NCBI GenBank assembly: GCA_964520505.1 | Contig: CAZFQP010000005.1 | Span: forward strand, 1 to 57,503 | Source: an uncultured Candidatus Saccharibacteria bacterium | Lineage (GTDB): Bacteria; Patescibacteriota; Doudnabacteria; UBA920 | Direction: 5' to 3' | DNA: 57,503 bases | Part shown: positions 128-55,586 of the stretch, in pieces | How the letters are laid out: each line of letters begins with the position of its first letter | Position numbering within the stretch: the stretch's first letter is position 1 | Notes under the pieces: generated by a model | Told to the model about the DNA's origin: nothing | What the model saw: the letters and a program-made list of their open reading frames with translations, nothing else | Databases searched by the model: none | Translations under genes and position numbers: made by a program

Positions 128-751
128 ATGTTAGTTTTTATTGACGATTCCGGAGATGCCGGCTTTAAACTTGAAAAAGGTTCAACTAATTTTTTTATTA
201 TTGCTATGGTTGTGTTCGATGATGAGTTGGAAGCGGAAAAGGTTGCCGTCGCCATTAAAGAATTAAGAAGAAGTTTGGGCTGGGAAAATTATAGAGAGTT
301 CAGATTTTTTAAACTCTCAAGAGATATTAGACTAAAGTTTCTAAAAGCTATTTCACATTTTGATTTTCGAGTTAGGGCTTTGGTTGTTGAAAAAAAATTA
401 ATTCGAAGTGACGAACTTCGCAATAAAAAAGACAAATTTTACAGTTACTTTATTAAAGAAGCTTTAAAACACAATGGCGGAAAAATTTTAAATGCAAAAA
501 TAAAAATTGACGGCAGCGGTGATAGGATTTTTAGGAAAAGTTTTCTTGGATACTTGCGCAGAGAATTGAACAGTATTGATCATACAGTCATGAAGCATTG
601 CAAAATGGAAGATTCTAAAAATAATGTTTTAATTCAAATGGCGGATGTCGTTGCTGGTAGTATTCACCGTTATTATTCAGAAAAAAAGGACGCAAAAGAT
701 TATAAAATTTTAATAAAAAACCATATTGAGGATGAGTGGAAATTTGGATAA
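128..751 (+). CDS. DUF3800 family protein
   Basis: The N-terminus MLVFIDDSGD and the C-terminal LIQMADVVAGSI match the acidic-residue pattern of DUF3800 (RNase H-like fold) proteins. Confidence 0.7.
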   Translation: MLVFIDDSGDAGFKLEKGSTNFFIIAMVVFDDELEAEKVAVAIKELRRSLGWENYREFRFFKLSRDIRLKFLKAISHFDFRVRALVVEKKLIRSDELRNKKDKFYSYFIKEALKHNGGKILNAKIKIDGSGDRIFRKSFLGYLRRELNSIDHTVMKHCKMEDSKNNVLIQMADVVAGSIHRYYSEKKDAKDYKILIKNHIEDEWKFG

Positions 752-951: not shown

Positions 952-1614
952 ATGCCTATAAAAAACATACACAAAATTGAACAACCCAGAGAGCGATTAA
1001 TTAAATACGGAGCGGGCAAGTTAAATAATCCCGATCTCCTGGCTATTTTATTGCATACCGGTCCAAAGGGGACAGGAGTAATGGAACTTGCGGCTAAAAT
1101 TTTTAAACAATTTCCGGAAAACAAACTGGCTAACGCGAGTTTTAAGGAACTAAAAAATATCCACGGCATTGGCCCGGCCAAGGCTTGTGAAATTGTGGCA
1201 ATGTTTGAACTTGGCCGTAGACTGCTTTTGGACAAGCCGGCGGCGTTAATTATTTCACCAAGGGAAGTTTGGGATCAGCTTAAAGATATTCGGACAAACA
1301 AAAAGGAACACTTTGTTGTGTTCTTTTTAAATACCCAAAACCAGGAAATTCAGCGAGAGCTTGTATCTGTTGGCACACTAAATGCTTCTTTAATCCACCC
1401 GCGCGAAGTGTTTGAACCGGCTATAAAACATTTAGCCGCGCACGTTATACTTGCCCACAACCACCCTTCCGGGAGCCTTGATCCTAGTAATGAAGATATC
1501 GCAGTCACCAAACGCCTGTCAGACGCCGGCCGTTTACTGGGAATTGAAGTGCTTGACCAAGTAATCGTCACTGCCAAAGGATACACAAGTTTTAAAGAAA
1601 AGAACTTGTTATAG
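952..1614 (+). CDS. radC: RadC-like JAB-domain protein (UPF0758)
   Basis: An N-terminal HhH-like region (PRERLIKYGAGKLNNPDLLAILL) is followed by the JAMM motif HNHPSGSLDPSNEDIAVTKRL. Confidence 0.85.
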   Translation: MPIKNIHKIEQPRERLIKYGAGKLNNPDLLAILLHTGPKGTGVMELAAKIFKQFPENKLANASFKELKNIHGIGPAKACEIVAMFELGRRLLLDKPAALIISPREVWDQLKDIRTNKKEHFVVFFLNTQNQEIQRELVSVGTLNASLIHPREVFEPAIKHLAAHVILAHNHPSGSLDPSNEDIAVTKRLSDAGRLLGIEVLDQVIVTAKGYTSFKEKNLL

Positions 1615-1623
1615 TTTTTTATT

Positions 1624-1682
1624 GTCATTGCGAGTACATCCGAAGCAATCTCTTATGTGTCATCCCGGACCCCGATCCGGGA
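1624..1682. repeat. GC-rich hairpin repeat cluster
   Basis: The 29-nt motif GTCATTGCGAGTACATCCGAAGCAATCTC (1624-1652) recurs with one mismatch at 33887-33915 inside murD. It is followed by the hairpin TCCCGGA-CCCCGA-TCCGGGA (1663-1682). Confidence 0.8.
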
Positions 1683-1752
1683 TCCAGATGATAGGCATGT
1701 TTTAATTCTGCGACATGTAACAGTCGGAGCGCTTTTCCGTCTATATTTAGCT

Positions 1753-2034
1753 ATGCGCAAAATCAAAAAAACAATTAAATTAAGACTCAATAGAATTTGC
1801 TCATGTTGCGGAAAGCCGCTCGCGGTAATTATATATACAGATAAATCTTACAGAGGCGGACACTATTTTGGAAAGATTCCAATTTCAACAGACAAAGAGT
1901 GGAAAAAGGCAATAAAGGCTGGCACCAAGCCATGGAATTTTCATGGTACTATTTTACAAGTAATGAAAAAAGACCCTGTGCCTTACAAGTTACTTGAGGA
2001 TTGGGAATGCTCTAAGTGTTATTGGAAAAGATAA
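1753..2034 (+). CDS. small Cys-rich (zinc-ribbon-like) protein
   Basis: The ORF-track entry 1657-2034 begins inside the repeat cluster. ATG at 1753 (MRKIKKTIK...) is the more plausible start. There are CxxC pairs at both ends (CSCC...; CSKC). Confidence 0.45.
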   Translation: MRKIKKTIKLRLNRICSCCGKPLAVIIYTDKSYRGGHYFGKIPISTDKEWKKAIKAGTKPWNFHGTILQVMKKDPVPYKLLEDWECSKCYWKR

Positions 2035-2166: not shown

Positions 2167-3747
2167 ATGCAAAATAATAAATCAAATTTAAACACAACTA
2201 AAGAACAAGAGCGAGCAGAGCTTCATAGGGCTATTTGGCAGATTGCCAATGACTTGAGGGGAAGCGTAGATGGTTGGGATTTTAAGCAATATGTGTTAGG
2301 AATACTTTTTTATCGTTTTATTAGCGAAAATCTTACTAACTATATTAATACTGACGAACATCGGTCGGGGAAAAAAGATTTTGATTACACTAAACTTTCA
2401 GACAAAGAAGCGGAGTTTGGTCGCGCTGACACTGTAAAAGAAAAGGGGTTTTATATTTTACCCAGCGAGTTATTTGTTAATGTTCGCAAAAATGCTCGCA
2501 ATGACGCGAACTTAAACGAAACACTTTCGAATATTTTTAGTAATATTGAAAACTCCGCGAAAGGCTCAAGCAGTGAAGACGACTTAAAAGGACTGTTTGA
2601 TGACTTAGATGTTAATTCGAATAAACTTGGTGCTAATGTTGAAAAAAGAAATCAAAGGTTAGTTAAACTCTTAGAAGCTATTGGCGATTTACGTCTTGGT
2701 GATTATGGAGATAATACAATTGATGCATTCGGCGATGCCTATGAGTTTCTTATGACTATGTATGCTTCCAATGCCGGCAAGTCCGGAGGAGAATTTTTTA
2801 CTCCTCAGGAAGTAAGTGAGCTCCTTGCAGAAATTACCACCGTTGGTAAAAAAGAAGTTAACAAAGTTTATGATCCTGCCTGTGGTTCAGGTTCTTTACT
2901 TCTTAAATTTTCCAAAGTTCTCGGTAAGGAAAATGTCCGGCAAGGTTTCTTCGGTCAGGAAATAAACCTTACTACATACAACCTTTGCCGTATTAATATG
3001 TTCCTGCACGATATTAATTATAATAATTTTGACATTGCTCACGGCGACACGCTTATTGACCCAAAACATTGGGACGACGAGCCGTTTGATGCCATAGTTT
3101 CTAATCCGCCATACTCCATTAAGTGGGAAGGCGATGCAAACCCACTTTTAATAAATGATCCTCGTTTTTCTCCTGCCGGAGTTCTTGCCCCAAAAAGCAA
3201 GGCCGATTTGGCATTTACTATGCATATGCTTTCCTGGCTTTCAACAAGCGGTACTGCGGCTATTGTTGAGTTTCCTGGCGTTCTTTACCGCGGGGGAGCT
3301 GAACAAAAAATTCGTAAATATTTAATTGATAACAACTATGTTGATGCGGTTATCCAATTACCGCCCGATCTTTTTTTTGGGACAACAATAGCAACTTGTG
3401 TTGTAATTTTAAAAAAGAGCAAAAAAGACAATAAAACTTTGTTTATTGATGCTTCGGCTGAGTTTGTGAGAGGTGGTAATAAAAATAAATTAAGTGAAGA
3501 AAACCGCAAAAAGATTCTCAATGCTTTTATTGAACGTAAAGATGTAGAATACTTTGTAAAAGTTGTAGATAACAAAGTAATTTCCGAAAACGACTACAAT
3601 ATAGCTGTTTCAAGCTATGTTACCGCAGAAGACACTCGCGAAATAGTAGACATAACCACCCTCAATGCAGAAATTACTAAGATAGTTGCAAGACAAAACG
3701 AACTTCGCACGGCGATTGATAAGATTGTGGCGAATATTGAAAATTAA
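2167..3747 (+). CDS. hsdM: type I restriction-modification system, methyltransferase subunit HsdM
   Basis: HsdM N-terminal domain (LWQIANDLRGSVDGWDFKQYVLGILFYRF), AdoMet motif YDPACGSGSLL and catalytic NPPYS motif (SNPPYSIKW). Confidence 0.95.
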   Translation: MQNNKSNLNTTKEQERAELHRAIWQIANDLRGSVDGWDFKQYVLGILFYRFISENLTNYINTDEHRSGKKDFDYTKLSDKEAEFGRADTVKEKGFYILPSELFVNVRKNARNDANLNETLSNIFSNIENSAKGSSSEDDLKGLFDDLDVNSNKLGANVEKRNQRLVKLLEAIGDLRLGDYGDNTIDAFGDAYEFLMTMYASNAGKSGGEFFTPQEVSELLAEITTVGKKEVNKVYDPACGSGSLLLKFSKVLGKENVRQGFFGQEINLTTYNLCRINMFLHDINYNNFDIAHGDTLIDPKHWDDEPFDAIVSNPPYSIKWEGDANPLLINDPRFSPAGVLAPKSKADLAFTMHMLSWLSTSGTAAIVEFPGVLYRGGAEQKIRKYLIDNNYVDAVIQLPPDLFFGTTIATCVVILKKSKKDNKTLFIDASAEFVRGGNKNKLSEENRKKILNAFIERKDVEYFVKVVDNKVISENDYNIAVSSYVTAEDTREIVDITTLNAEITKIVARQNELRTAIDKIVANIEN

Positions 3748-3760
3748 GTATAAGTATTAT

Positions 3761-4204
3761 ATGGAAAATGAAAATTTAAAACAGAACAACCATGGTCCAA
3801 ATAAAATTGCACATCTACAAATGATTCAAGGCGTAATTGACAGAATGGGCGGTAATTTATTTTATCTACGTGGGTGGTCAATTACTTTGCTCGCAGGTCT
3901 TTTTGCTTTTTCTACATCTGGAATTTTACCAGATGGTAAATGGTCAATTTTTCTATTAGTGATTTTATTATTTCTATTTTGGGTTTTGGATGGTTATTTC
4001 CTTTCTCTAGAACGATGTTTTAGAGATTTGTATGATAAAATACGAAAAACAAATGAGAACGAAATTGATTTTTCAATGAATATTAGTGAGTTTATAAAAT
4101 TACGAGACAGATCTCCATTACGAACCATGTTCAGACCAACATTATTTTGGTTTTACGGAATACTTTTAATTTCTATGTCAATAATTATGAAATTAACTTG
4201 GTAA
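3761..4204 (+). CDS. small multi-pass membrane protein (147 aa), unknown function
   Basis: ATG lies 13 nt after the hsdM stop. There are three hydrophobic segments (WSITLLAGLFAFSTSGIL, WSIFLLVILLFLFWVLDGYFL, TLFWFYGILLISMSIIMKL). The track ORF start at 3686 overlaps hsdM and is unlikely. Confidence 0.6.
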   Translation: MENENLKQNNHGPNKIAHLQMIQGVIDRMGGNLFYLRGWSITLLAGLFAFSTSGILPDGKWSIFLLVILLFLFWVLDGYFLSLERCFRDLYDKIRKTNENEIDFSMNISEFIKLRDRSPLRTMFRPTLFWFYGILLISMSIIMKLTW

Positions 4205-4208
4205 AAAT

Positions 4209-4901
4209 ATGGCAAAAATATTTATTAGCTATAAATATGGGGATAAATATGTGGGGCAGCATAATTCTTATAATCACACTGAGTGGTTACTCGATTCAGA
4301 AAATGGCAATTACTTAACAGCAAGAGATTATGTGACTTATTTAATGGAAAAAGTTTTAACAGACCATACAAATAAAGCAGAAAAAGATGATGAAGATCTT
4401 AGCTATCTTACTGAGGAAACGATACAGAAAAAATTATATGATAGAATCTACGATAGCACCGTAACTATAATTTTGCTTTCCAAAAATATGAAAGAATCCA
4501 AAGAGGAAAAATTGCAATGGATTCCGCGTGAAATTTCTTATTCTCTTAGAGAGAAAACAAAAGAAGATAGGACTAGTTATACAAATGGGATTTTAGTGGT
4601 GGCTTTGCCTGATGAAAAAGATAATTATGATCACGCAGTAATTAATAAAAATTGTGGGGTGAGAAGTTGGCAAACGGGATCATTTTTCAAAATCATTTAT
4701 AAAAATATGTTTAATAGGAAAGACAAAAAACAAACAATGTGCGATTCTTGTTTTAATTATCACCACAACGGAGATGATCACTCATACATTCATCCGGTTA
4801 AATGGGATGATTTTATAAAAGATCATAATAAATATATTAATTTTGTTTTAAATTTAAAGGAAAGACTTGATGAATTTGAATTGACTAAGATTCACGATTA
4901 A
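4209..4901 (+). CDS. ThsB-like TIR-domain (DUF1863-type) protein
   Basis: MAKIFISYKYGD, then STVTIILLSKNM, LQWIPREISYSL and GILVVALPD. This reproduces the strand pattern and conserved Glu of bacterial ThsB-type TIR domains. The C-terminal part is Cys/His-rich. Confidence 0.65.
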   Translation: MAKIFISYKYGDKYVGQHNSYNHTEWLLDSENGNYLTARDYVTYLMEKVLTDHTNKAEKDDEDLSYLTEETIQKKLYDRIYDSTVTIILLSKNMKESKEEKLQWIPREISYSLREKTKEDRTSYTNGILVVALPDEKDNYDHAVINKNCGVRSWQTGSFFKIIYKNMFNRKDKKQTMCDSCFNYHHNGDDHSYIHPVKWDDFIKDHNKYINFVLNLKERLDEFELTKIHD

Positions 4902-4902
4902 T

Positions 4903-6090
4903 ATGGCCAAACATACTAGTAAAATTGAAAAATTAATCGCTGAACTCTGTCCGAATGGGGTTGAGTTTAAAAAATTGGGTAAATTAGCAAGTATAGAAAC
5001 CGGAACCCAGCTAAATAAAACTACAATGGCAAAAACTGGCGATTATCCGGTTTTGAATGGTGGTATAAATCCATCTGGTTTTTATCATGAATTCAATACT
5101 GAAGAAAATACAATAGCAATAAGTCAAGGTGGCGCGTCGGCTGGTTATGTAAATTTTGTTACAACAAAATTTTGGGCAGGTGCACATTGTTTTGTCGTAA
5201 AACCCACAAATAACGAAGTTAATAACCGGTATTTATATTTTCTTTTAAAAAATGGGCAGGAAAAATTACAAAGCGCAAAATTAGGCGCAGGTATACCAGG
5301 ACTTAATAAAAAGGAATTACAAAATTTCAAAATTCCTCTGCCACCACTTGCAATTCAAGAAGAAATTGTAAAAATTCTTAATAATTTTACAGAACTAGAA
5401 GCAGAACTAGAAGCAGAACTAGAAGCAAGAAAGAAACAGTATGAGCATTATCGCTCTCAGCTTTTGACATTTAAGGAAGAGGGGGGGGTACAATGGGTTA
5501 GGCTTAATGATATTGGCACTTTAATCAGAGGAAATGGATTGCAAAAGAAAGATTTTGCTGAAGCTGGCGTTGGTTGCATTCACTATGGGCAAATTTACAC
5601 ATATTACGGAACATTTACTGATAAAACTAAATCATTTGTGTCACCTGAGTTGGCAAAAAAATTGAAAAAAGTACAAAAAGGAGATGTGATAATAACTAAC
5701 ACCAGTGAAAACTTAGAAGATGTTGGTAAAGCGGTTGTTTGGTGCGGAGATAATGAAATTGTAACGGGTGGACACGCAACAATTTTTAAACCAAAAAATA
5801 TTCTTGGAAAATATTTTGCTTATTACACACAAACTAAAATGTTTTTTGACGAGAAAAGAAAATATGCAAAAGGCACAAAAGTTATAGATGTTTCAGCAAG
5901 AGATATGGGTAAAATAAAAATTCCGCTTCCGCCAATTGATATGCAAGAACGAGTTGTGTCAATTCTTGATAAATTTGACGCATTGGTGAACGATATTTCA
6001 ATAGGTCTGCCGGCGGAGATTAAGGCGCGGAGGCAACAGTATGAATATTATAGAGGAAAACTTTTAACTTTTAAGGAATATGTCAAGTAA
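4903..6090 (+). CDS. hsdS: type I restriction-modification system, specificity subunit HsdS
   Basis: Two target-recognition halves are each followed by a conserved helix (LPPLAIQEEIVKIL...YEHYRSQLLTF and LPPIDMQERVVSIL...YEYYRGKLLTF). Confidence 0.9.
   Translation: MAKHTSKIEKLIAELCPNGVEFKKLGKLASIETGTQLNKTTMAKTGDYPVLNGGINPSGFYHEFNTEENTIAISQGGASAGYVNFVTTKFWAGAHCFVVKPTNNEVNNRYLYFLLKNGQEKLQSAKLGAGIPGLNKKELQNFKIPLPPLAIQEEIVKILNNFTELEAELEAELEARKKQYEHYRSQLLTFKEEGGVQWVRLNDIGTLIRGNGLQKKDFAEAGVGCIHYGQIYTYYGTFTDKTKSFVSPELAKKLKKVQKGDVIITNTSENLEDVGKAVVWCGDNEIVTGGHATIFKPKNILGKYFAYYTQTKMFFDEKRKYAKGTKVIDVSARDMGKIKIPLPPIDMQERVVSILDKFDALVNDISIGLPAEIKARRQQYEYYRGKLLTFKEYVK
5392..5427 (+). repeat. perfect 12-bp x3 tandem repeat (GAACTAGAAGCA) in the hsdS central spacer helix
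   Basis: Read directly from the sequence. It encodes ELEAELEAELEA. Confidence 0.95.
5481..5488 (+). repeat. G8 homopolymer tract inside hsdS
   Basis: gaG GGG GGG Gta encodes E-G-G-V, just after the central conserved region. Confidence 0.95.
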
Positions 6091-28253: not shown

Positions 28254-29237
28254 ATGGAAGAAACAGAAATAAAAATCCAGGTAAAAAATACAGTTTTAAA
28301 AGTACTACCATTTTGGTTGATTTTTTTAATTTTGGTCACCGCGGTCCAAATCGGAGCTTTTCAGTTAATTAAAGCTCCTGTGTCGAGCAAAGTGACAAAC
28401 CAAACTCCGGTTCCTCAGGTTTTGGGGGCTAGTATTTCGCTTCGAGGCGAAGCGCCATCAACAGTTTCCGAAATCCCAAAGCTCAAAGAACCTGATTTAA
28501 GCAATATTTCTGCGAAAAGTTTTTTAGCATTTGACCTCGACAGTGGCCGAGAATACATTAAAGAAAATGAAAACGGAAAGTTAAGCATTGCCAGTCTTAC
28601 CAAACTACTTACTGCCCTAGTAGCTTATAAAACGGCCGATTTAAATGCCAACTTTACGATATCGGCCAAAAGCAACATAGACACCAAACCGGTTTTGGGG
28701 CTAGTTGCTGGTGACAGCGTAAAAGCAGTGGACGTTTTAAACTCAATGATCGTCGGCTCTTGTAATGATGCCGCTTTAGCTCTGGCACAGTACGTTTCTG
28801 ACTCAGAAAATAAAAGTTTTATTACTTTAATGAACGACACCGCTAAGGAAATTGGAATGAATAATAGTAATTTTTCCAACCCGATGGGTTTTGATAGCCG
28901 AAATAATTATTCCACGGCCGAGGACTTAAAAATTCTTATTACCGAAACCGAAAAATTAGCAATTTTTAATAATTTAGGGCGTCGCACCAGCTACAGCTTT
29001 TCCGGAAGCAATCAGAAAACCTATACCGCTTATGCCACCAATAAACTTATTAAAAACCATCCCGACATTCAAGCTATAAAAACCGGCTTCACTGAGAGTG
29101 CGGGCGGAGCCATGGCTACAAAAATAACCCTAGGGTCGCGAGACATAGCAATTTTAGTGTTGAACAGTCAAAATCGGGAAGGGGATACGCTAAAAATAAA
29201 GCAGCAGTTAGAAAATAGCTTTAATTGGCAGCCTTAA
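28254..29237 (+). CDS. serine-type D-Ala-D-Ala carboxypeptidase (peptidase S11, PBP5-like)
   Basis: SxxK (SIASLTKLL), SxN (SCND) and KTG (KTGFT) motifs, with an N-terminal TM anchor. Confidence 0.85.
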   Translation: MEETEIKIQVKNTVLKVLPFWLIFLILVTAVQIGAFQLIKAPVSSKVTNQTPVPQVLGASISLRGEAPSTVSEIPKLKEPDLSNISAKSFLAFDLDSGREYIKENENGKLSIASLTKLLTALVAYKTADLNANFTISAKSNIDTKPVLGLVAGDSVKAVDVLNSMIVGSCNDAALALAQYVSDSENKSFITLMNDTAKEIGMNNSNFSNPMGFDSRNNYSTAEDLKILITETEKLAIFNNLGRRTSYSFSGSNQKTYTAYATNKLIKNHPDIQAIKTGFTESAGGAMATKITLGSRDIAILVLNSQNREGDTLKIKQQLENSFNWQP

Positions 29238-31905: not shown

Positions 31906-33471
31906 ATGTACTCATTACTTATTAAAAATGCCAAAGTTATAGACGGCACCGGGCGGACCGGAGAAATTGCAGATGTTGCCGTGCAAGATGACGAAATTGT
32001 TGCCGTTGCACCAAACATTACCACCGAGGCACAAACTGTAATCGATGCAGCCGGCAAAATTCTAGTTCCCGGTTTTATTGACTTGCAAAATCATAGTGAC
32101 AGCTACTGGCAAATTTTTGACAACCCCTCTTTAGACAGCATGGTCAGCCAGGGCTATACCACAATTCTAGTCGGTAATTGCGGTGCCAGCTTAGCTCCAT
32201 TGCTTACCAACGATGCCCTGTTGTCTATGCAAAAATGGCACAGTCTGGAGGCTGCCAATATCAACTGGCGCAGCTTTTCAGAATATATGGAAGAGCTGGA
32301 AAAAAATCACTATGGCTGCAATATTGCCAGCTTGGTTGGTTATTCAACTTTGCGCCGCGCGGTTGTGGGCGACCAAATTCGTTCATTAGAAAAAAATGAA
32401 CTGGATTCGTTAAAAAAAGTTTTGGAACAAAGTTTAAAAGCCGGAGCATTTGGGCTTTCCAATGGTCTTTCTTATGCCCACGAAATTATTATTTCTGAAC
32501 TGGAACTATTTGAACTTGCCAAAATTGTTAAAAAATCAGACGGACTATTTTCTATCCACTTAAGAAGTGAGGGGGCAGAAATTATTGAAGCCGTAGACGA
32601 AGCTTTAGATATCGCAAAATCTACCGAGGTTAATCTAAAAATTTCCCATTTAAAATTGCGTAACGAGGCCAATTGGCCCAAATTTGACGAGTTAGTCAGC
32701 ATAATTGATACAGCCTACCACCGAGGTATAAATGTCCACTTTGACCTTTACCCTTATGACACTGTCTGGCAAGCGTTATACAGCTATTTGCCAAAATGGG
32801 CAATAGAAGGCGGACGGGCAATTTTACTTAAACACTTTGAAGACCCGGTACAAAAAAATAAAATTTTAATGTACCTCAACAATTCAGGTATAAAATTTTC
32901 CACCATGCAAATAGCTTCCACGGCTAGCAAGCTGAGTTTTACAGGAAAAACAATCGGGCAAGTTGCTAAAAATTTAGAGGTTTCATCCGAGCAAGCAGTT
33001 TTGCATATAATTGCCAATGGTGGCAGTGAGGTTTTGGTGTTTGAAAAAAATCTTAATGAGGATCATGTAAATAAATTATTGTTGCATCCGCTATCCTTTA
33101 TTGGCACGGACGGAGCCGGATTTTCAAAAAATATTAAAGACCGCCTGGTTCACCCTCGGTGTTTTGGCAGTGCGCCAAAATTTTTAAATTTCGCCCAAAA
33201 ATCCGGACAAATTACTTTAGAACAAGCAATAAAAAAACTTACTTCTGCGCCGGCCAAAAAACTTGGACTATACAAACGCGGCGAAATTAAAGTCGGCAAT
33301 TTTGCGGATTTGGTTATAATGGACGCGGATAAAATTGCCGACAAATCAACTTACACTAACCCCGGCCAGTTTAGCGAAGGAATCGAGCAAGTTTTTGTTA
33401 ACGGAAATATTGTTATGCAAGGAGGGCAAGCAACCGGAACTCTGTCCGGACGAGCTTTAAGAAAAAATTAA
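31906..33471 (+). CDS. N-acyl-D-amino-acid deacylase (D-aminoacylase) family amidohydrolase
   Basis: LIKNAKVIDGTG...ADVAVQDDEIVAV...IDAAGKILVPGFIDLQNHSD and the overall length fit Amidohydro_3 D-aminoacylases. The usual HxH is QNH here. Confidence 0.75.
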   Translation: MYSLLIKNAKVIDGTGRTGEIADVAVQDDEIVAVAPNITTEAQTVIDAAGKILVPGFIDLQNHSDSYWQIFDNPSLDSMVSQGYTTILVGNCGASLAPLLTNDALLSMQKWHSLEAANINWRSFSEYMEELEKNHYGCNIASLVGYSTLRRAVVGDQIRSLEKNELDSLKKVLEQSLKAGAFGLSNGLSYAHEIIISELELFELAKIVKKSDGLFSIHLRSEGAEIIEAVDEALDIAKSTEVNLKISHLKLRNEANWPKFDELVSIIDTAYHRGINVHFDLYPYDTVWQALYSYLPKWAIEGGRAILLKHFEDPVQKNKILMYLNNSGIKFSTMQIASTASKLSFTGKTIGQVAKNLEVSSEQAVLHIIANGGSEVLVFEKNLNEDHVNKLLLHPLSFIGTDGAGFSKNIKDRLVHPRCFGSAPKFLNFAQKSGQITLEQAIKKLTSAPAKKLGLYKRGEIKVGNFADLVIMDADKIADKSTYTNPGQFSEGIEQVFVNGNIVMQGGQATGTLSGRALRKN

Positions 33472-34937
33472 TGCCAACATCCGAATTAACAAATAAATTA
33501 GTGGCCATTTTAGGCTTTGGCCAGGAAGGCCAAAGCACTGCAGAATATTTACTGAAAGCCGGAATTCGTCCGGTTTTATTTGACCAGCGTCCCTGGGGAG
33601 ATTGGGCAAAAGAAGATCAGGAAAAAATTAAAAACTTAGGCGTTAACTTTATTTTTGGCCCGGATGCTTTTTTAGAGTTAAAAGGTTTTGACGTGGCTTT
33701 TAGAAGTCCGGGCATTAAATTGTCTGATCCTCATTTGCAGGCAAGGATAAAAGATAAAAAATCAAAACTAGTTATTACCAGTCAGACCAAATGGTTTTTT
33801 GACCACTGCCCGGCCAAAATTATTGGCGTCACCGGAACCAAAGGCAAAGGTACCACAGCTTCATTAATATATAGAATCCTTTCCTCGTCATTGCGAGTGC
33901 ATCCGAAGCAATCTCAAACAATAAAGGGATTGTCACACCCCTCAGATACATTCGAGGTTCGCAATGACAAACGTTCAGTCTACTTAACCGGGAATATCGG
34001 CAAAATCCAACCATTCGAAATTTTAGATACCCTGTCGGAACTCGACTGGGTAGTTTACGAGCTCTCCAGTTTTCAATTACAAGATTTAACCAAGAGCCCG
34101 CAAATTGGCGTCGTATTAATGGTTACAAAGGAACATTTAGATTACCACAAAAATTTAAACGAATACCATTCGGCTAAAAATGCAATTACCAAATTCCAGA
34201 CAGTGGACGATACTGCGGTAATCAACGCCGACTATCCGGCTTCCAAGAAAATTGGGAACTTAGGTAAAGGCCAAAAGATTTACGTAAGCCGTTTTCAACC
34301 GGTAAAGCCCGGGTGTTTTGTTAAACAAGGGGAAATATTTTACTGTGCCCCAAAAAGCAAACCGGAAAAAATTCTGCAGCTAAGTAAATTAAAATTGCTC
34401 GGGGAGCATAATTGGGAAAATGTTTGCGCCGCCGTAGCCGCAGCTAAAGCTGCCGGCTGCGGACAAAAAGCCATTGTCAAAGCGTTAACCACTTTTTCCG
34501 GCTTACCCAACCGGCTGGAGTTAGTGGCCGAAAAAAACGGAATAAAATTTTATAATGATTCATTTTCAACAACGCCGGAGACCACTATTGCCGCAGTTGA
34601 GGCCATAAAGGAGCCTAAAATTTTAATTCTTGGGGGGTCTTCCAAAAAGTCAGATTTTAAGGCTCTAGCCACCACTATAAATAATGATAAAAATATTCGT
34701 GGATTAATTCTAATTGGCCAAGAAGCGTTGAATATCAAAAATGCTTTAGGAAAAAAGAGCTCGATTCCAATACAAGAAGGAGCCACCAATATGACTGAAA
34801 TATTTAAGCAGATTAAAACCTTTGCCAGACCAGGGGACACAGTTTTGTTAAGCCCCGCCTGCGCTTCATTCGGGATGTTTAAAAATTATAATGATCGAGG
34901 CTCGCAATTCGCTCAAGCCGCAAAAAACTGGAACTAA
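33471..34937 (+). CDS. murD: UDP-N-acetylmuramoylalanine--D-glutamate ligase, with an in-frame repeat insertion
   Basis: P-loop GVTGTKGKGTT, LTGNIG, SSFQL, and a C-terminal domain LPNRLE...FYNDSFSTTPE. The start overlaps the previous stop (TAATG). Confidence 0.9.
   Translation: MPTSELTNKLVAILGFGQEGQSTAEYLLKAGIRPVLFDQRPWGDWAKEDQEKIKNLGVNFIFGPDAFLELKGFDVAFRSPGIKLSDPHLQARIKDKKSKLVITSQTKWFFDHCPAKIIGVTGTKGKGTTASLIYRILSSSLRVHPKQSQTIKGLSHPSDTFEVRNDKRSVYLTGNIGKIQPFEILDTLSELDWVVYELSSFQLQDLTKSPQIGVVLMVTKEHLDYHKNLNEYHSAKNAITKFQTVDDTAVINADYPASKKIGNLGKGQKIYVSRFQPVKPGCFVKQGEIFYCAPKSKPEKILQLSKLKLLGEHNWENVCAAVAAAKAAGCGQKAIVKALTTFSGLPNRLELVAEKNGIKFYNDSFSTTPETTIAAVEAIKEPKILILGGSSKKSDFKALATTINNDKNIRGLILIGQEALNIKNALGKKSSIPIQEGATNMTEIFKQIKTFARPGDTVLLSPACASFGMFKNYNDRGSQFAQAAKNWN
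33887..33968. mobile_element. ~82-bp palindromic (MITE/RPE-like) element inserted in frame in murD
   Basis: Terminal inverted repeats GTCATTGCGAG ... TTCGCAATGAC. The first 29 nt match 1624-1652 at 28 of 29 positions. It encodes about 27 extra residues (SLRVHPKQSQTIKGLSHPSDTFEVRNDK) directly after the P-loop helix. Confidence 0.65.
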
Positions 34938-44617: not shown

Positions 44618-45118
44618 ATGTTTAGAAAAATTCAAGACTTTATAAATATTTGGGATGAGGAAAGCAAATCAACCTTAAAAGTTTTGAATTCCGTTACGGA
44701 ACAAAACAAAAAACAAGCCGTAGCGGAAGGTTTTAGGACATTGGAACGCCTGGCTTGGCATATAACTACCACACTTCCTGAAATGTGCGGCAAAATTGGC
44801 GTTGAATTTAAAAGCCATTTAGACGAGAATACAGTCCCTGGCACAGTTGCGGAAATTGTTTCTGTTTACGAAAAAGTAAGCGACGAGCTGGTTGAAGGTT
44901 TAAAAAAATGGACAGATGCCGATTTGGAAAAAGAAACCAATATGTATGGCGAGCCTTGGAAGAACGGTACAACCCTAATGGTTCTTATTTCGCATCAAGC
45001 TCACCACCGCGGACAAATGACAGTTCTGCTTAGGCAGGCAGGACTAAAAGCTCCCGATGTTTGCGGGCCGGCAAAAGAAGATTGGGCAAATTTTGGCGCC
45101 CAGCCCCCAATAGTTTAA
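44618..45118 (+). CDS. DinB-family (four-helix bundle) protein
   Basis: RLAWHITTT...LISHQAHHRGQMTVLLRQAG has His-triad spacing typical of DinB/DinB_2. Confidence 0.8.
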   Translation: MFRKIQDFINIWDEESKSTLKVLNSVTEQNKKQAVAEGFRTLERLAWHITTTLPEMCGKIGVEFKSHLDENTVPGTVAEIVSVYEKVSDELVEGLKKWTDADLEKETNMYGEPWKNGTTLMVLISHQAHHRGQMTVLLRQAGLKAPDVCGPAKEDWANFGAQPPIV

Positions 45119-45338: not shown

Positions 45339-45384
45339 AACTTGTGTGCAAAATAGGACGATCGTCCTATTTTGCACACAAGTT
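45339..45384. terminator. 46-bp perfect palindrome (bidirectional terminator-like)
   Basis: AACTTGTGTGCAAAATAGGACGA|TCGTCCTATTTTGCACACAAGTT. Confidence 0.7.
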
Positions 45385-45784: not shown

Positions 45785-46411
45785 ATGATTAAAGCGGTAA
45801 TTTTTGACATAGACGGGGTTTTGGTTGACTCATTTGAAGCAAACCATCAGTTTCTAAAAAACGTGACCAAGCTTCTAAAACTCAAGTTCGCGAGTAAAAA
45901 ATCTTATAAGGTAAATTTTGCCTTACCATTTAGAGAATTGCTTAAGAAAGAGAACGATATTGTCGACCATTCAAAGCTGGATAAATTAATTGAAAAAGCC
46001 AGAAAAAAAGTTAAATACCCATTCCACCTAATAAAAACTTTCGACGAATGTGAAGAAACCTTAAATAAATTAAATAAAAAATATAAACTGGCTTTAGTCA
46101 CCGGCAGAACGCTTAGCGGGTTAAAAGTTTACTACCAACATTCAAAAAATCGAAAACTTTTTAAGGCCGCTGTGACTCTCACAGATGTAAAAAATCACAA
46201 GCCCCATCCGGAATCCTTGTTGCAAGCCGCAAAAAAATTGAAAATAAAACCAAGCGAAGCAATATACATAGGGGACGCAAAAAGCGATATGTTGGCAGCT
46301 AAAGCTGCTGGCATGAAATCTATTATTTTTAACAAAAAGCCGGTTAAGGGTGCTTCCGCTAATATATCTCATTTTAAGCAATTAATCCCAACCATTAACA
46401 AACTTATTTAA
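45785..46411 (+). CDS. HAD-superfamily hydrolase (phosphatase)
   Basis: Motif I VIFDIDGVLVDS, motif II LVTGR, and KPHPE...IGDAKSDMLAAKAAG. Confidence 0.85.
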   Translation: MIKAVIFDIDGVLVDSFEANHQFLKNVTKLLKLKFASKKSYKVNFALPFRELLKKENDIVDHSKLDKLIEKARKKVKYPFHLIKTFDECEETLNKLNKKYKLALVTGRTLSGLKVYYQHSKNRKLFKAAVTLTDVKNHKPHPESLLQAAKKLKIKPSEAIYIGDAKSDMLAAKAAGMKSIIFNKKPVKGASANISHFKQLIPTINKLI

Positions 46412-51519: not shown

Positions 51520-51595
51520 GCCGGCTTAGCTCATCTGGTAGAGCAGCGGTATCGTAAACCGCAGGTGGTCGGTTCAAGTCCGACAGCCGGCTCCA
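51520..51595 (+). tRNA. tRNA-Thr (anticodon CGU), CCA encoded
   Basis: Hand-folded cloverleaf: acceptor GCCGGCT/AGCCGGC, D-arm GCTC/GAGC, anticodon arm GCGGT-AT CGT AA-ACCGC, T-arm GTCGG-TTCAAGT-CCGAC, discriminator T, then CCA. Confidence 0.9.
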
Positions 51596-54209: not shown

Positions 54210-54276
54210 TTGGAAGCTAGTTTTAGATCTTTGGGAGGAAAATTTCTTCCCTTAGATTTACAACTTAACCAAAACT

Positions 54277-54360
54277 CTCTACTAAATACGAAAAAACTAA
54301 ACTACTAAACTTTTAAAAAATCGATTTCGTAATTTCGTTCATTTAGTATTTAGTAGAAAA
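54277..54360. repeat. ~85-nt imperfect-hairpin repeat, copy A (upstream of atpF)
   Basis: CTCTACTAAATACGAAA...CGATTTCGTAATTTCGTTCATTTAGTATTTAGTAGAAAA. The ends are reverse complements (TCTACTAAATAC / GTATTTAGTAGA). Confidence 0.85.
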
Positions 54361-54365
54361 CTTTT

Positions 54366-54932
54366 ATGATTGACTTTCACAATATTGCACAACTTTTAAT
54401 TCCTGTAGCTCATGCGGCGGAAGAAGCCGCGACAGAGGGCGGTATTGCCGGAACTTTTGGCATTGACTGGATGAAATTTATTGCTCAGTTAATTAACTTT
54501 GGCATTGTACTATTTATTCTTTGGAAATGGGTTTTCGGTCCGGTAACCAAAAAATTGCAGGAACGCACCGACAAAATAGAAAAGGCCATGCGCGACGCCA
54601 ACTCCACAGAAAAAGAAAAACAGGAATTTGCCGTGTGGAAACAGCAAGAAATGACCAAAGCCAAAACTGAAGCCAACAGCATAATTAACAGCGCGCAAAC
54701 AGAAGCCGGTAAAGTTAAAGAAGATATTTTAAAACAAGCAAAAGAAGAACAGTTGAAATTAGTTGAACTGAGCAAGAAACAAATTGAACAAGAAAAAGCC
54801 CAAGCTCTTTCTTCCGCAAAGTCTGAACTGGCAGATATAATTACCACAGCAACAGAAAAGATACTAAGGCAGAAATTGGACGACAAAAAGGATAAAGAAC
54901 TAATTAAAGAGTCGCTTAATGACATTAAATAG
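54366..54932 (+). CDS. atpF: F0F1 ATP synthase subunit b
   Basis: An N-terminal TM (FIAQLINFGIVLFILWKWVF) is followed by a long charged helix; its position in the operon fits. Confidence 0.88.
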   Translation: MIDFHNIAQLLIPVAHAAEEAATEGGIAGTFGIDWMKFIAQLINFGIVLFILWKWVFGPVTKKLQERTDKIEKAMRDANSTEKEKQEFAVWKQQEMTKAKTEANSIINSAQTEAGKVKEDILKQAKEEQLKLVELSKKQIEQEKAQALSSAKSELADIITTATEKILRQKLDDKKDKELIKESLNDIK

Positions 54933-54933
54933 C

Positions 54934-55018
54934 CTCTACTAAATACGAAAGACACTAAACTACTAAAACTTCAAACATTCGATTTCGTAATTTCGTTTAT
55001 TTAGTATTTAGTAGAAAA
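54934..55018. repeat. ~85-nt imperfect-hairpin repeat, copy B (downstream of atpF)
   Basis: About 85-90% identical by eye to 54277-54360. Confidence 0.85.
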
Positions 55019-55418: not shown

Positions 55419-55586
55419 TGAACCCGACCCAGATATACGCCTGCCTACCGGCAGGCAGGGATGCATCCGAATCTGCAGATAACTTCGGACAGAACATCCG
55501 CAAGAATCCGTTGATCCGGATATAATCCGTAAATCAGGATCGGAATAAAATTTTAAATCTTATATCTTAAATCCTAAATTACTACT

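Follow-up and report, generated by a model that had tools for sequence, protein, structure and literature searches.

The murD gene and its additional loop

The stretch of DNA analysed here, referred to as the window, comprises 57,503 nucleotides (nt) of contig CAZFQP010000005.1 (assembly GCA_964520505.1), from an uncultured member of the Doudnabacteria, a lineage of the Patescibacteria or Candidate Phyla Radiation (CPR). Its murD, an essential peptidoglycan gene, carries within its reading frame an 82-nt palindromic element with the layout of two repetitive extragenic palindrome (REP) units in inverted orientation. The gene lies as follows:

33471..34937, plus strand: murD, UDP-N-acetylmuramoylalanine--D-glutamate ligase, 488 aa, assigned from the open reading frame (ORF) list, Pfam, a match to E. 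coli MurD and an AlphaFold2 (AF2) model

The product comprises the Pfam domains MurD-like_N (PF21799), Mur_ligase_M (PF08245) and Mur_ligase_C (PF02875), that is, a three-domain Mur ligase with a P-loop and a MurD-type N-terminal domain, and matches E. coli MurD at E=1e-49 in a PDB sequence search. The segment GTKGKGTTASLIYRIL is followed, directly after the P-loop helix, by SSSLRVHPKQSQTIKGLSHPSDTFEVRNDKRS and then by VYLTGNIG. Alignment to E. coli MurD falls into two blocks (query residues 7-136 on chain residues 5-126, and 172-486 on 136-436), and the gap between them holds 35 query residues against 9 in E. coli, equivalent to ~26 extra residues. The canonical length of this loop was taken from more distant CPR sequences, mostly 39-57% identical, listed as matches in a metagenome scan: the span from P-loop to GNIG is exactly 30 aa in 61 of the 77 murD loci listed, against 56 aa in the window, and no further carriers of the element were found among these matches.

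The element codes for MurD residues 140-166 (27 residues), with the frame open throughout. In the AF2 model, which has a predicted local distance difference test score (pLDDT) of 92 and a predicted template modelling score (pTM) of 0.90, and superposes on MurD crystal structures with TM scores of up to 0.84, residues 141-170 are the sole long low-confidence stretch (mean pLDDT 46-62) of an otherwise confident fold. Their only regular secondary structure is a short helical turn (145-147) and, at residue 170, the start of strand 170-174; the loop is flanked by this strand and by helix 126-141. As it follows the C-terminal end of the P-loop helix, it is probably surface-exposed and far from the ATP site. 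An earlier note, made from the sequence alone, had proposed an in-frame palindromic insert in murD at 33887-33968, tolerated as a loop; the open frame, the ten complementary nucleotides at either end and the surplus of residues over E. coli bear this out, and the model places the insert in an unstructured, low-confidence loop.

Anatomy of the element

The element and its parts are:

33886..33969, plus strand: inverted REP dimer with its outer tags, recognised from its sequence, inverted repeat, fold and likeness to the copies in five other loci (L001-L005)
33886-33889, plus strand: left outer tag, CGTC
33966-33969, plus strand: right outer tag, GACA (the reverse complement of TGTC)
33887..33915, plus strand: REP unit 1, well preserved, GTCATTGCGAG-TGCATC-CGAAGCAATC-TC
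33916..33927, plus strand: spacer AAACAATAAAGG, the apical loop of the long hairpin, from sequence and fold
33928..33968, minus strand: REP unit 2, inverted and degenerate, with the minus-strand reading GTCATTGCGAA-...-CAATC

The element proper is the 82 nt from 33887 to 33968, its left-hand neighbour C and right-hand neighbour A completing the CGTC/TGTC tags. Its terminal inverted repeat (33887-33896 with 33959-33968) is complementary at 10 of 10 positions, and as 11-mers the two ends differ by one mismatch. The ends are therefore complementary, as had been noted, but the repeats bounding the insert belong to two inverted REP units, whose outer stems they form, and are not transposon-type terminal repeats. 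The second unit was recognised from its minus-strand 11-mer, with the one mismatch, and from homology to the second arm of the L001 copy. The layout common to the window and L001-L005 is GTCATTGCGAG-variable-CGAAGCAATC, a spacer, and GATTGCTTCG-variable-CTCGCAATGAC, in which the spacer sequence is not constant.

Unit 1 is identical to the L001 unit at 29 of 29 positions, and has a near-identical counterpart elsewhere in the window:

1624..1652, plus strand: solo unit of the same family, intergenic, 10 nt past the stop of a radC-like ORF (952..1614)

The first 29 nt of the element match this unit at 28 positions, a level of agreement reached in 0 of 100 shuffles, which confirms the match on which the earlier note had relied. 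The solo unit is preceded by T.

As RNA, the whole element is predicted to form one long hairpin with a free energy (dG) of -27.9 kcal/mol (z -3.7), and as DNA one of dG -14.4 (z -3.6). Single REP units give no significant fold under standard parameters; by eye, the unit stem is a 5-bp ATTGC/GCAAT pairing around a GA-rich centre. No Rfam family matches at the murD element. In a set of 5.8 billion proteins, a 40-aa stretch with the translated element drew no candidate that shared enough 5-residue words with it, a result that bears neither way on how widespread the peptide is. A terminator was ruled out, as no T-run follows the hairpin on its 3' side on the coding strand; the only terminator-like match is on the minus strand, at chance level.

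Carriers and non-carriers among MurD orthologues

The history of the site was followed in the 120 best MurD homologues, with DNA compared for the window and L001-L005. The closest homologues of the window protein are from Doudnabacteria or Patescibacteria, at no more than 63% identity. The insert, recognisable as SLR..KQS...RND, stands at the same alignment position in 7 of the 120 (window included), the six other carriers being 57-63% identical to the window MurD. Phase and orientation are identical in all six copies with DNA, which are 82, 82, 100, 97, 85 and 121 nt long, and all are stop-free and in frame. Orthologue alignment thus shows the insertion site to be shared by six other proteins. 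The target-site duplication that might have accompanied insertion is absent, as no direct repeat occurs at the flanks of any of the six copies (...CCTC / AAACG... in the window, ...TCTC / AAAGA... in L001), and on these grounds a miniature inverted-repeat transposable element was ruled out.

Conservation between carriers is concentrated in the DNA of the stems. Between carriers, three conserved blocks totalling 31 nt show 96.8% identity, while in the rest of murD third codon positions are 39% identical (saturated) and, where carriers agree in a six-fold-degenerate residue, they use the same codon at just 24% of such sites. The triplets TCA TTG CGA are invariant in five of the six carriers, despite coding for six-fold-degenerate Ser, Leu and Arg, and the centres and spacer vary freely. 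The two stem substitutions seen, T to C in L004 and T to C in L005, are both uncompensated; with stems that hardly vary, no covariation support for the hairpin could be obtained from these copies. The earlier note would have regarded a homologous loop of similar sequence in orthologues of distant lineages as the sign of an ancestral feature. Six orthologues at 57-63% identity do carry such a loop, but it is not an ordinary ancestral protein loop, because its conservation is at the level of nucleotides and not of amino acids, and because carriers are scattered among non-carriers.

Carriers are 57-65% identical to each other, no closer than to non-carriers. The neighbour-joining tree is star-like and not bootstrapped, and does not resolve the deep history of the carriers; only tight pairs and the ranking of identities were relied on. 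The most informative pair consists of carrier P0002 (L001) and non-carrier P0031 (L126), which share 89% protein and 91% DNA identity and yet differ wholly in the loop tract, P0031 having a run of TGTCAAA-like heptamers (peptide KLQCQMSNFKYQT) in place of the element. The next relatives of P0002, at 75, 74, 68, 67 and 67% identity, also lack it, and the identity of P0002 to any other carrier does not exceed 63%. Since P0031 and the next five relatives are without the element, it was either gained recently in the P0002 lineage or lost several times. This supports mobility of the hairpin family, as earlier suggested, or at least turnover; mobility within the source genome itself is a supposition, as the window has only one other unit.

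The loop of P0031 also contains, at about 2404-2416 of L126, TTGCAATGTCAAA, which closely resembles the right end of the REP, TCGCAATGACAAA; in CPR loci TTGCAATG is found only about 0.024 times per kb. This match, noticed post hoc, may be the scar of a lost REP dimer.

The window and P0002 elements are 82% identical over 82 nt, including an idiosyncratic second arm in which the two differ only by transitions. Over a 105-nt tract that takes in flanking codons the two differ at 20 positions; 15 of these differences are transitions, and 15 pair an A/T in the window with a G/C in L001. The genes as wholes share only 64% DNA identity, yet the flanking codons are similar. Two histories fit this pattern: a short murD segment may have passed between divergent alleles, or the same dimer lineage may have arrived at a preferred target and then decayed, with an A/T bias, in the lineage of the window. 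Among all fetched loci the idiosyncratic arm was found only in L001, and no 'master copy' was identified. Judged by its intact unit 1 and its degenerate unit 2, drifted towards A/T, the window copy looks old.

Other repeats in MurD loops

Unrelated repeats occupy the same loop in other lineages. In L207 (811-2235, P0020) it holds a strong hairpin (dG -31.5 kcal/mol, z -6.3) which by eye is an inverted dimer of GTAG-tagged palindromes, GTAG-TTT-GCCGAT-TT-ATCGGC ... GCCCAT-AA-ATGGGC-AGA-CTAC, and the PING-type peptide (CSLPIYRL..PINGQTT) occurs in four proteins, P0020, P0003, P0043 and P0061. Lineage-specific tandem arrays of heptamers (TGTCAAA, TTTTCAA, GATACTA/CACCTAA, TCGCCAA, AATCAGA and TTTCCAA) fill the murD loop of L126, L128, L163, L178, L183, L208 and L209, and that of L129 contains an 18-nt perfect palindrome. 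The 7-nt period is odd for coding DNA, in which the frame is kept only by changes of three units.

On the simplest view, MurD is at its most permissive in the turn after the P-loop helix, and events there survive for that reason; a targeting effect may add to this. REPs are known to attract further repeat or insertion events. Other MurD loops of relatives (after query residues 93, 297 and 428) contain, less frequently, the peptides GGSASGG, GAGLKPAPT, LTPNPSPRGRGE and RLRQGYVGQG, which have the look of translated hairpin repeats. In-frame repeat insertions seem common in these CPR proteins.

The repeat family across bacteria

One scan of a species-representative genome collection with GTCATTGCGAG-N(3-30)-CGAAGCAATC returned at least 120 loci, with phyla read from record titles. 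Those listed, to which the following counts refer, belong to Alpha- and Gammaproteobacteria, Chloroflexota, Bacteroidota, Cyanobacteria, Melainabacteria, Zixibacteria, Desulfobacterota, Planctomycetota and Latescibacterota, with a few Firmicutes, one Helicobacter, and Patescibacteria including a named Doudnabacteria genome. Inverted dimers with the tags outward, the architecture of the murD element, make up 31 of 38 adjacent pairs. Dimers of other phyla are mostly flanked by C...G (CGTC...GACG), with a CCA(G) tail after GCAAT, and often combine an arm with a 5-nt centre and an arm whose centre is 11-13 nt long. The commonest centre is CGAAG, and 60 of 171 units have a 5-nt centre, with 11-13-nt variants alongside. 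In CPR copies the tail is CTC or CTT, not CCA.

Several copies occur within a single 8-kb locus in Bradyrhizobium, Chloroflexus and one Patescibacteria metagenome-assembled genome (MAG). The CPR murD loci (782 kb) contain 12 family units, nine of them within murD itself. In-frame copies of the ATTGCGAG family were found in two genes confirmed by Pfam, encoding UvrA (L117) and GMP synthase (L093). In several other stop-free-frame candidates the unit lies upstream of the first domain, or there is no Pfam domain. Of 205 units in the loci from the genome scan, 77 fall in a frame open for 150 aa or more, a count set aside as unreliable because long spurious frames are a feature of GC-rich genomes.

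In one Patescibacteria MAG (L047), a 524-aa membrane protein (3691-5265, minus strand) ends in ~35 residues (...SLRGSLATKQSPVSRNKSEIASLPSVARNDRQF) encoded by a REP dimer at 3703-3793, and a near-identical second dimer (5977-6067) occupies the next intergenic gap, 2.2 kb off. Between the paired dimers of L047 and of L070 there is no gene for a REP-associated tyrosine transposase. The named Doudnabacteria genome (L020) has an intergenic solo unit among other repeats.

Comparison with known systems

The closest relatives of the element are the CGTC-tagged REPs, a superfamily defined by Di Nocera, De Gregorio & Rocco 2013 (BMC Genomics 14:522; PMC3733652). These have an unpaired CGTC tag (variants TGTC and CCTC), a stem of 8-9 bp that starts with A-T pairs, a loop of 4-5 nt and a CCA tail; dimers predominate, and copies are mostly intergenic, near gene 3' ends. 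They are described there as enriched in Alphaproteobacteria and present also in deep phyla, with no dedicated transposase reported, and Neisseria dRS3 and the Rickettsia palindromic elements (RPEs) RPE-4 and RPE-6 are counted as members. Intragenic copies code for 20-30 aa, more than half being dimers or groups and many lying in repair genes (PMC3733652).

The window element shares with this superfamily a CGTC/TGTC tag, a stem starting with AT and the inverted dimer, and its wider family has GCAAT-CCA in most dimers of other phyla and is predominantly dimeric (31 of 38 pairs, with all murD copies being dimers). It differs in that the stem of the window unit has only five continuous Watson-Crick pairs in place of an uninterrupted 8-9 bp; in that the unit, by eye, has within it a GA-rich loop together with either a GCGAAGC-type inner hairpin or a variable insert; and in the CTC/CTT tail of CPR copies. 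With its atypical interrupted stem, it is placed here only as far as the superfamily, within which that paper distinguishes four families. A term search of PMC3733652 and its supplements found neither Patescibacteria nor murD.

The earlier note had likened the element to RPEs, palindromic repeats whose in-frame copies in housekeeping genes add a tolerated stretch of peptide. The open frame and the unstructured, low-pLDDT loop agree with this comparison, and the CGTC-tagged layout places the insert in the superfamily that includes RPE-4 and RPE-6; the host differs, being a free-standing CPR lineage and not Rickettsia. RPE-1 is longer, at about 100-150 bp. The RPE link is drawn from the assignment of RPE-4 and RPE-6 to CGTC families in PMC3733652.

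The REPINs mobilised by REP-associated tyrosine transposases (RAYTs; Bertels & Rainey; PMC3337134, bioRxiv 10.1101/2022.05.22.493013) likewise consist of two inverted REPs and a spacer that together form one hairpin, and the window and L001 copies, which share the whole dimer with its idiosyncratic parts, resemble them as an evolving unit. REPINs proper, however, carry GTAG-type REPs, which also flank the RAYT gene, whereas the tag here is CGTC/TGTC and a motif regular expression, a weak test, found no cognate RAYT (an HUH Y1 transposase) within 57.5 kb. A precedent for differing REPs at about one position of a gene is Xanthomonas recB, where related species have different REPs at about the same place (PMC3733652); in murD the phenomenon extends to at least seven CGTC-type carriers, four GTAG-type-looking carriers and heptamer arrays among 120 orthologues, and in an essential gene.

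A literature search with sequence words returned only unrelated primer matches, and no paper on in-frame REPs in CPR proteins was found in the literature searched. Intragenic REP and RPE insertions are known; what is new is the presence of in-frame REP dimers in CPR, and in an essential peptidoglycan gene.

Origin and persistence of the insert

The murD insert is probably a non-autonomous, REPIN-like inverted dimer of a CGTC/TGTC-tagged REP, lodged in the turn between the P-loop helix and the following β-strand and tolerated there as a loop. It would have reached murD through events at the level of DNA and not through protein evolution, whether by transposition, through an enzyme acting on single-stranded hairpins, or by short-tract transfer between murD alleles, or both. 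As the frame is kept across copies of different lengths, the insert is presumably translated, giving a 27-residue disordered surface loop that MurD tolerates and making the element a nearly neutral passenger. The loop may recur as a site of repeats as there are few harmless places in MurD, and resident repeats may attract further events.

Several observations weigh against this explanation. The same codon, frame and orientation in seven lineages do not readily follow from random insertion and survival; they would require that insertion is target-specific, that alleles were transferred, or that a single origin was followed by constraint at the nucleotide level. The second arm and flanking codons shared by the window and L001 fit segment transfer better than fresh transposition. 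The CGTC class of REPs has no known transposase, and none was seen in the window, where a search by motif regular expression alone found no RAYT-like HUH motif in any frame. Only two family loci, the murD element and the solo unit, occur in the 57.5 kb, so that proliferation in the source genome is no more than a possibility.

A stronger claim is that the post-P-loop turn of Doudnabacteria murD is a targeted landing site for CGTC-type and GTAG-type REP dimers and for heptamer arrays or, in a variant, a loop 'cassette' exchanged between very divergent alleles. Such targeting could be directed by a hairpin-processing enzyme or by local DNA structure. The idea is unlikely as matters stand; were it true, the site would offer a natural, phylogenetically replicated system in which to find the mechanism that mobilises CGTC REPs.

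Also unlikely is a single ancient insertion whose hairpin was co-opted and kept by selection on the nucleic acid, which would act, for example, as an mRNA processing or stability element in the cell-wall gene cluster or as the binding site of a DNA-structuring protein. Stems that are 97% identical against 39% at third codon positions, the single position, frame and orientation in seven lineages, and a stable hairpin (z about -3.7) are what such selection would produce, and REPs elsewhere have been proposed in the literature to act as RNA or DNA elements. Nevertheless, 113 of the 120 best homologues do without the element, among them P0031 at 89% identity to a carrier, and most of the distant CPR MurD proteins listed have a minimal loop. 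Moreover, both stem substitutions (L004 and L005) are uncompensated, the second arm is decaying in the window copy, unrelated repeats fill the same loop in other lineages, and the coding strand has no terminator-like signal.

It is very improbable that the loop is a lineage-specific functional part of Doudnabacteria MurD, such as an interaction surface, with an incidental likeness to repeats. SLR..KQS...RND does recur at the same place in seven orthologues, yet it is codons that are conserved and not residues (TCA TTG CGA in five of six carriers), the middle is free in length (82-121 nt) and sequence, the loop has low pLDDT and no stable secondary structure, and the same DNA is found between genes in the window and across phyla.

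Finally, a few systems are known in which a strong hairpin promotes ribosomal bypassing, and repeats can confuse metagenome assemblers, but an insert present in DNA and missing from the protein (through bypassing or other removal), or an assembly artefact at the repeat, is scarcely credible, as all six copies, which come from separate samples and assemblers, contain no stops and stay in frame despite differing in length, which a bypassed or spurious segment need not do, and the murD sequence is contiguous on both flanks of the element.

The murD orthologues from many metagenomes provide a natural time series at one site, in filled, empty, replaced and decayed states, that bears on how CGTC REPs, for which no transposase is known, move and stay uniform across phyla. 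There is also a warning for the annotation and structural study of CPR proteins: length variation in conserved enzymes may stem from repeat DNA and not from functional loops.

Other repeats and features of the window

A second, classical repeat follows the intergenic solo unit head-to-tail, directly after this ATTGCGAG unit:

1658..1686, plus strand: CGTC-type REP, TGTC-ATCCCGGAC-CCCG-ATCCGGGAT-CCA, from a tagged-hairpin scan and its fold

Its 9-bp stem with one mismatch, 4-nt loop and CCA tail fit the CGTC-family features given in PMC3733652. A GTG-start ORF (1657..2034) begins inside it, and its predicted N-terminus is probably spurious as a result. A third 11-mer match, at 2495-2505 on the minus strand, lies within the ORF of a type I restriction-modification methylase (2167..3747), lacks the second half of the unit and is probably due to chance.

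Other palindromes are present. The family CCTGCC-N-GGCAGG (peptide LPAGRQ) occurs in the window at 55440-55459, between genes; it stands also beside a REP unit in the named Doudnabacteria genome (L020, 4842-4860), and in frame in the L129 murD loop. A 327-aa ORF (28254..29237) contains in frame, at ~28437-28460, the short perfect palindrome CGCTTCG-AGG-CGAAGCG, which would read ISLRGEAPS in the protein and is akin to the GCGAAGC core found in the REP family. Hairpin-forming inverted repeats at 54271-54364 and 54935-55015 share the motif CTCTACTAAATACGAAA and flank ORF 54366..54932; with arms of up to 33 nt, 82% complementary, they form a separate local repeat family. A perfect 46-nt palindrome (45339-45384; 23-nt arms, zero spacer) is located between ORFs ending at 45118 and starting at 45785.

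The long ORFs, those that resemble real genes, are all on the plus strand across the window. The surroundings of murD (amidohydrolase, murD, ftsW) are kept in relatives, where Pfam shows DUF4012, murJ and lepA next. Among RNA genes, a DUF3800-IX RNA (Rfam, 48.9 bits, above the gathering score) lies at 778-845 on the minus strand, just downstream of ORF 128-751 (plus strand), itself DUF3800-like by sequence, and a tRNA is located at 51520-51592.

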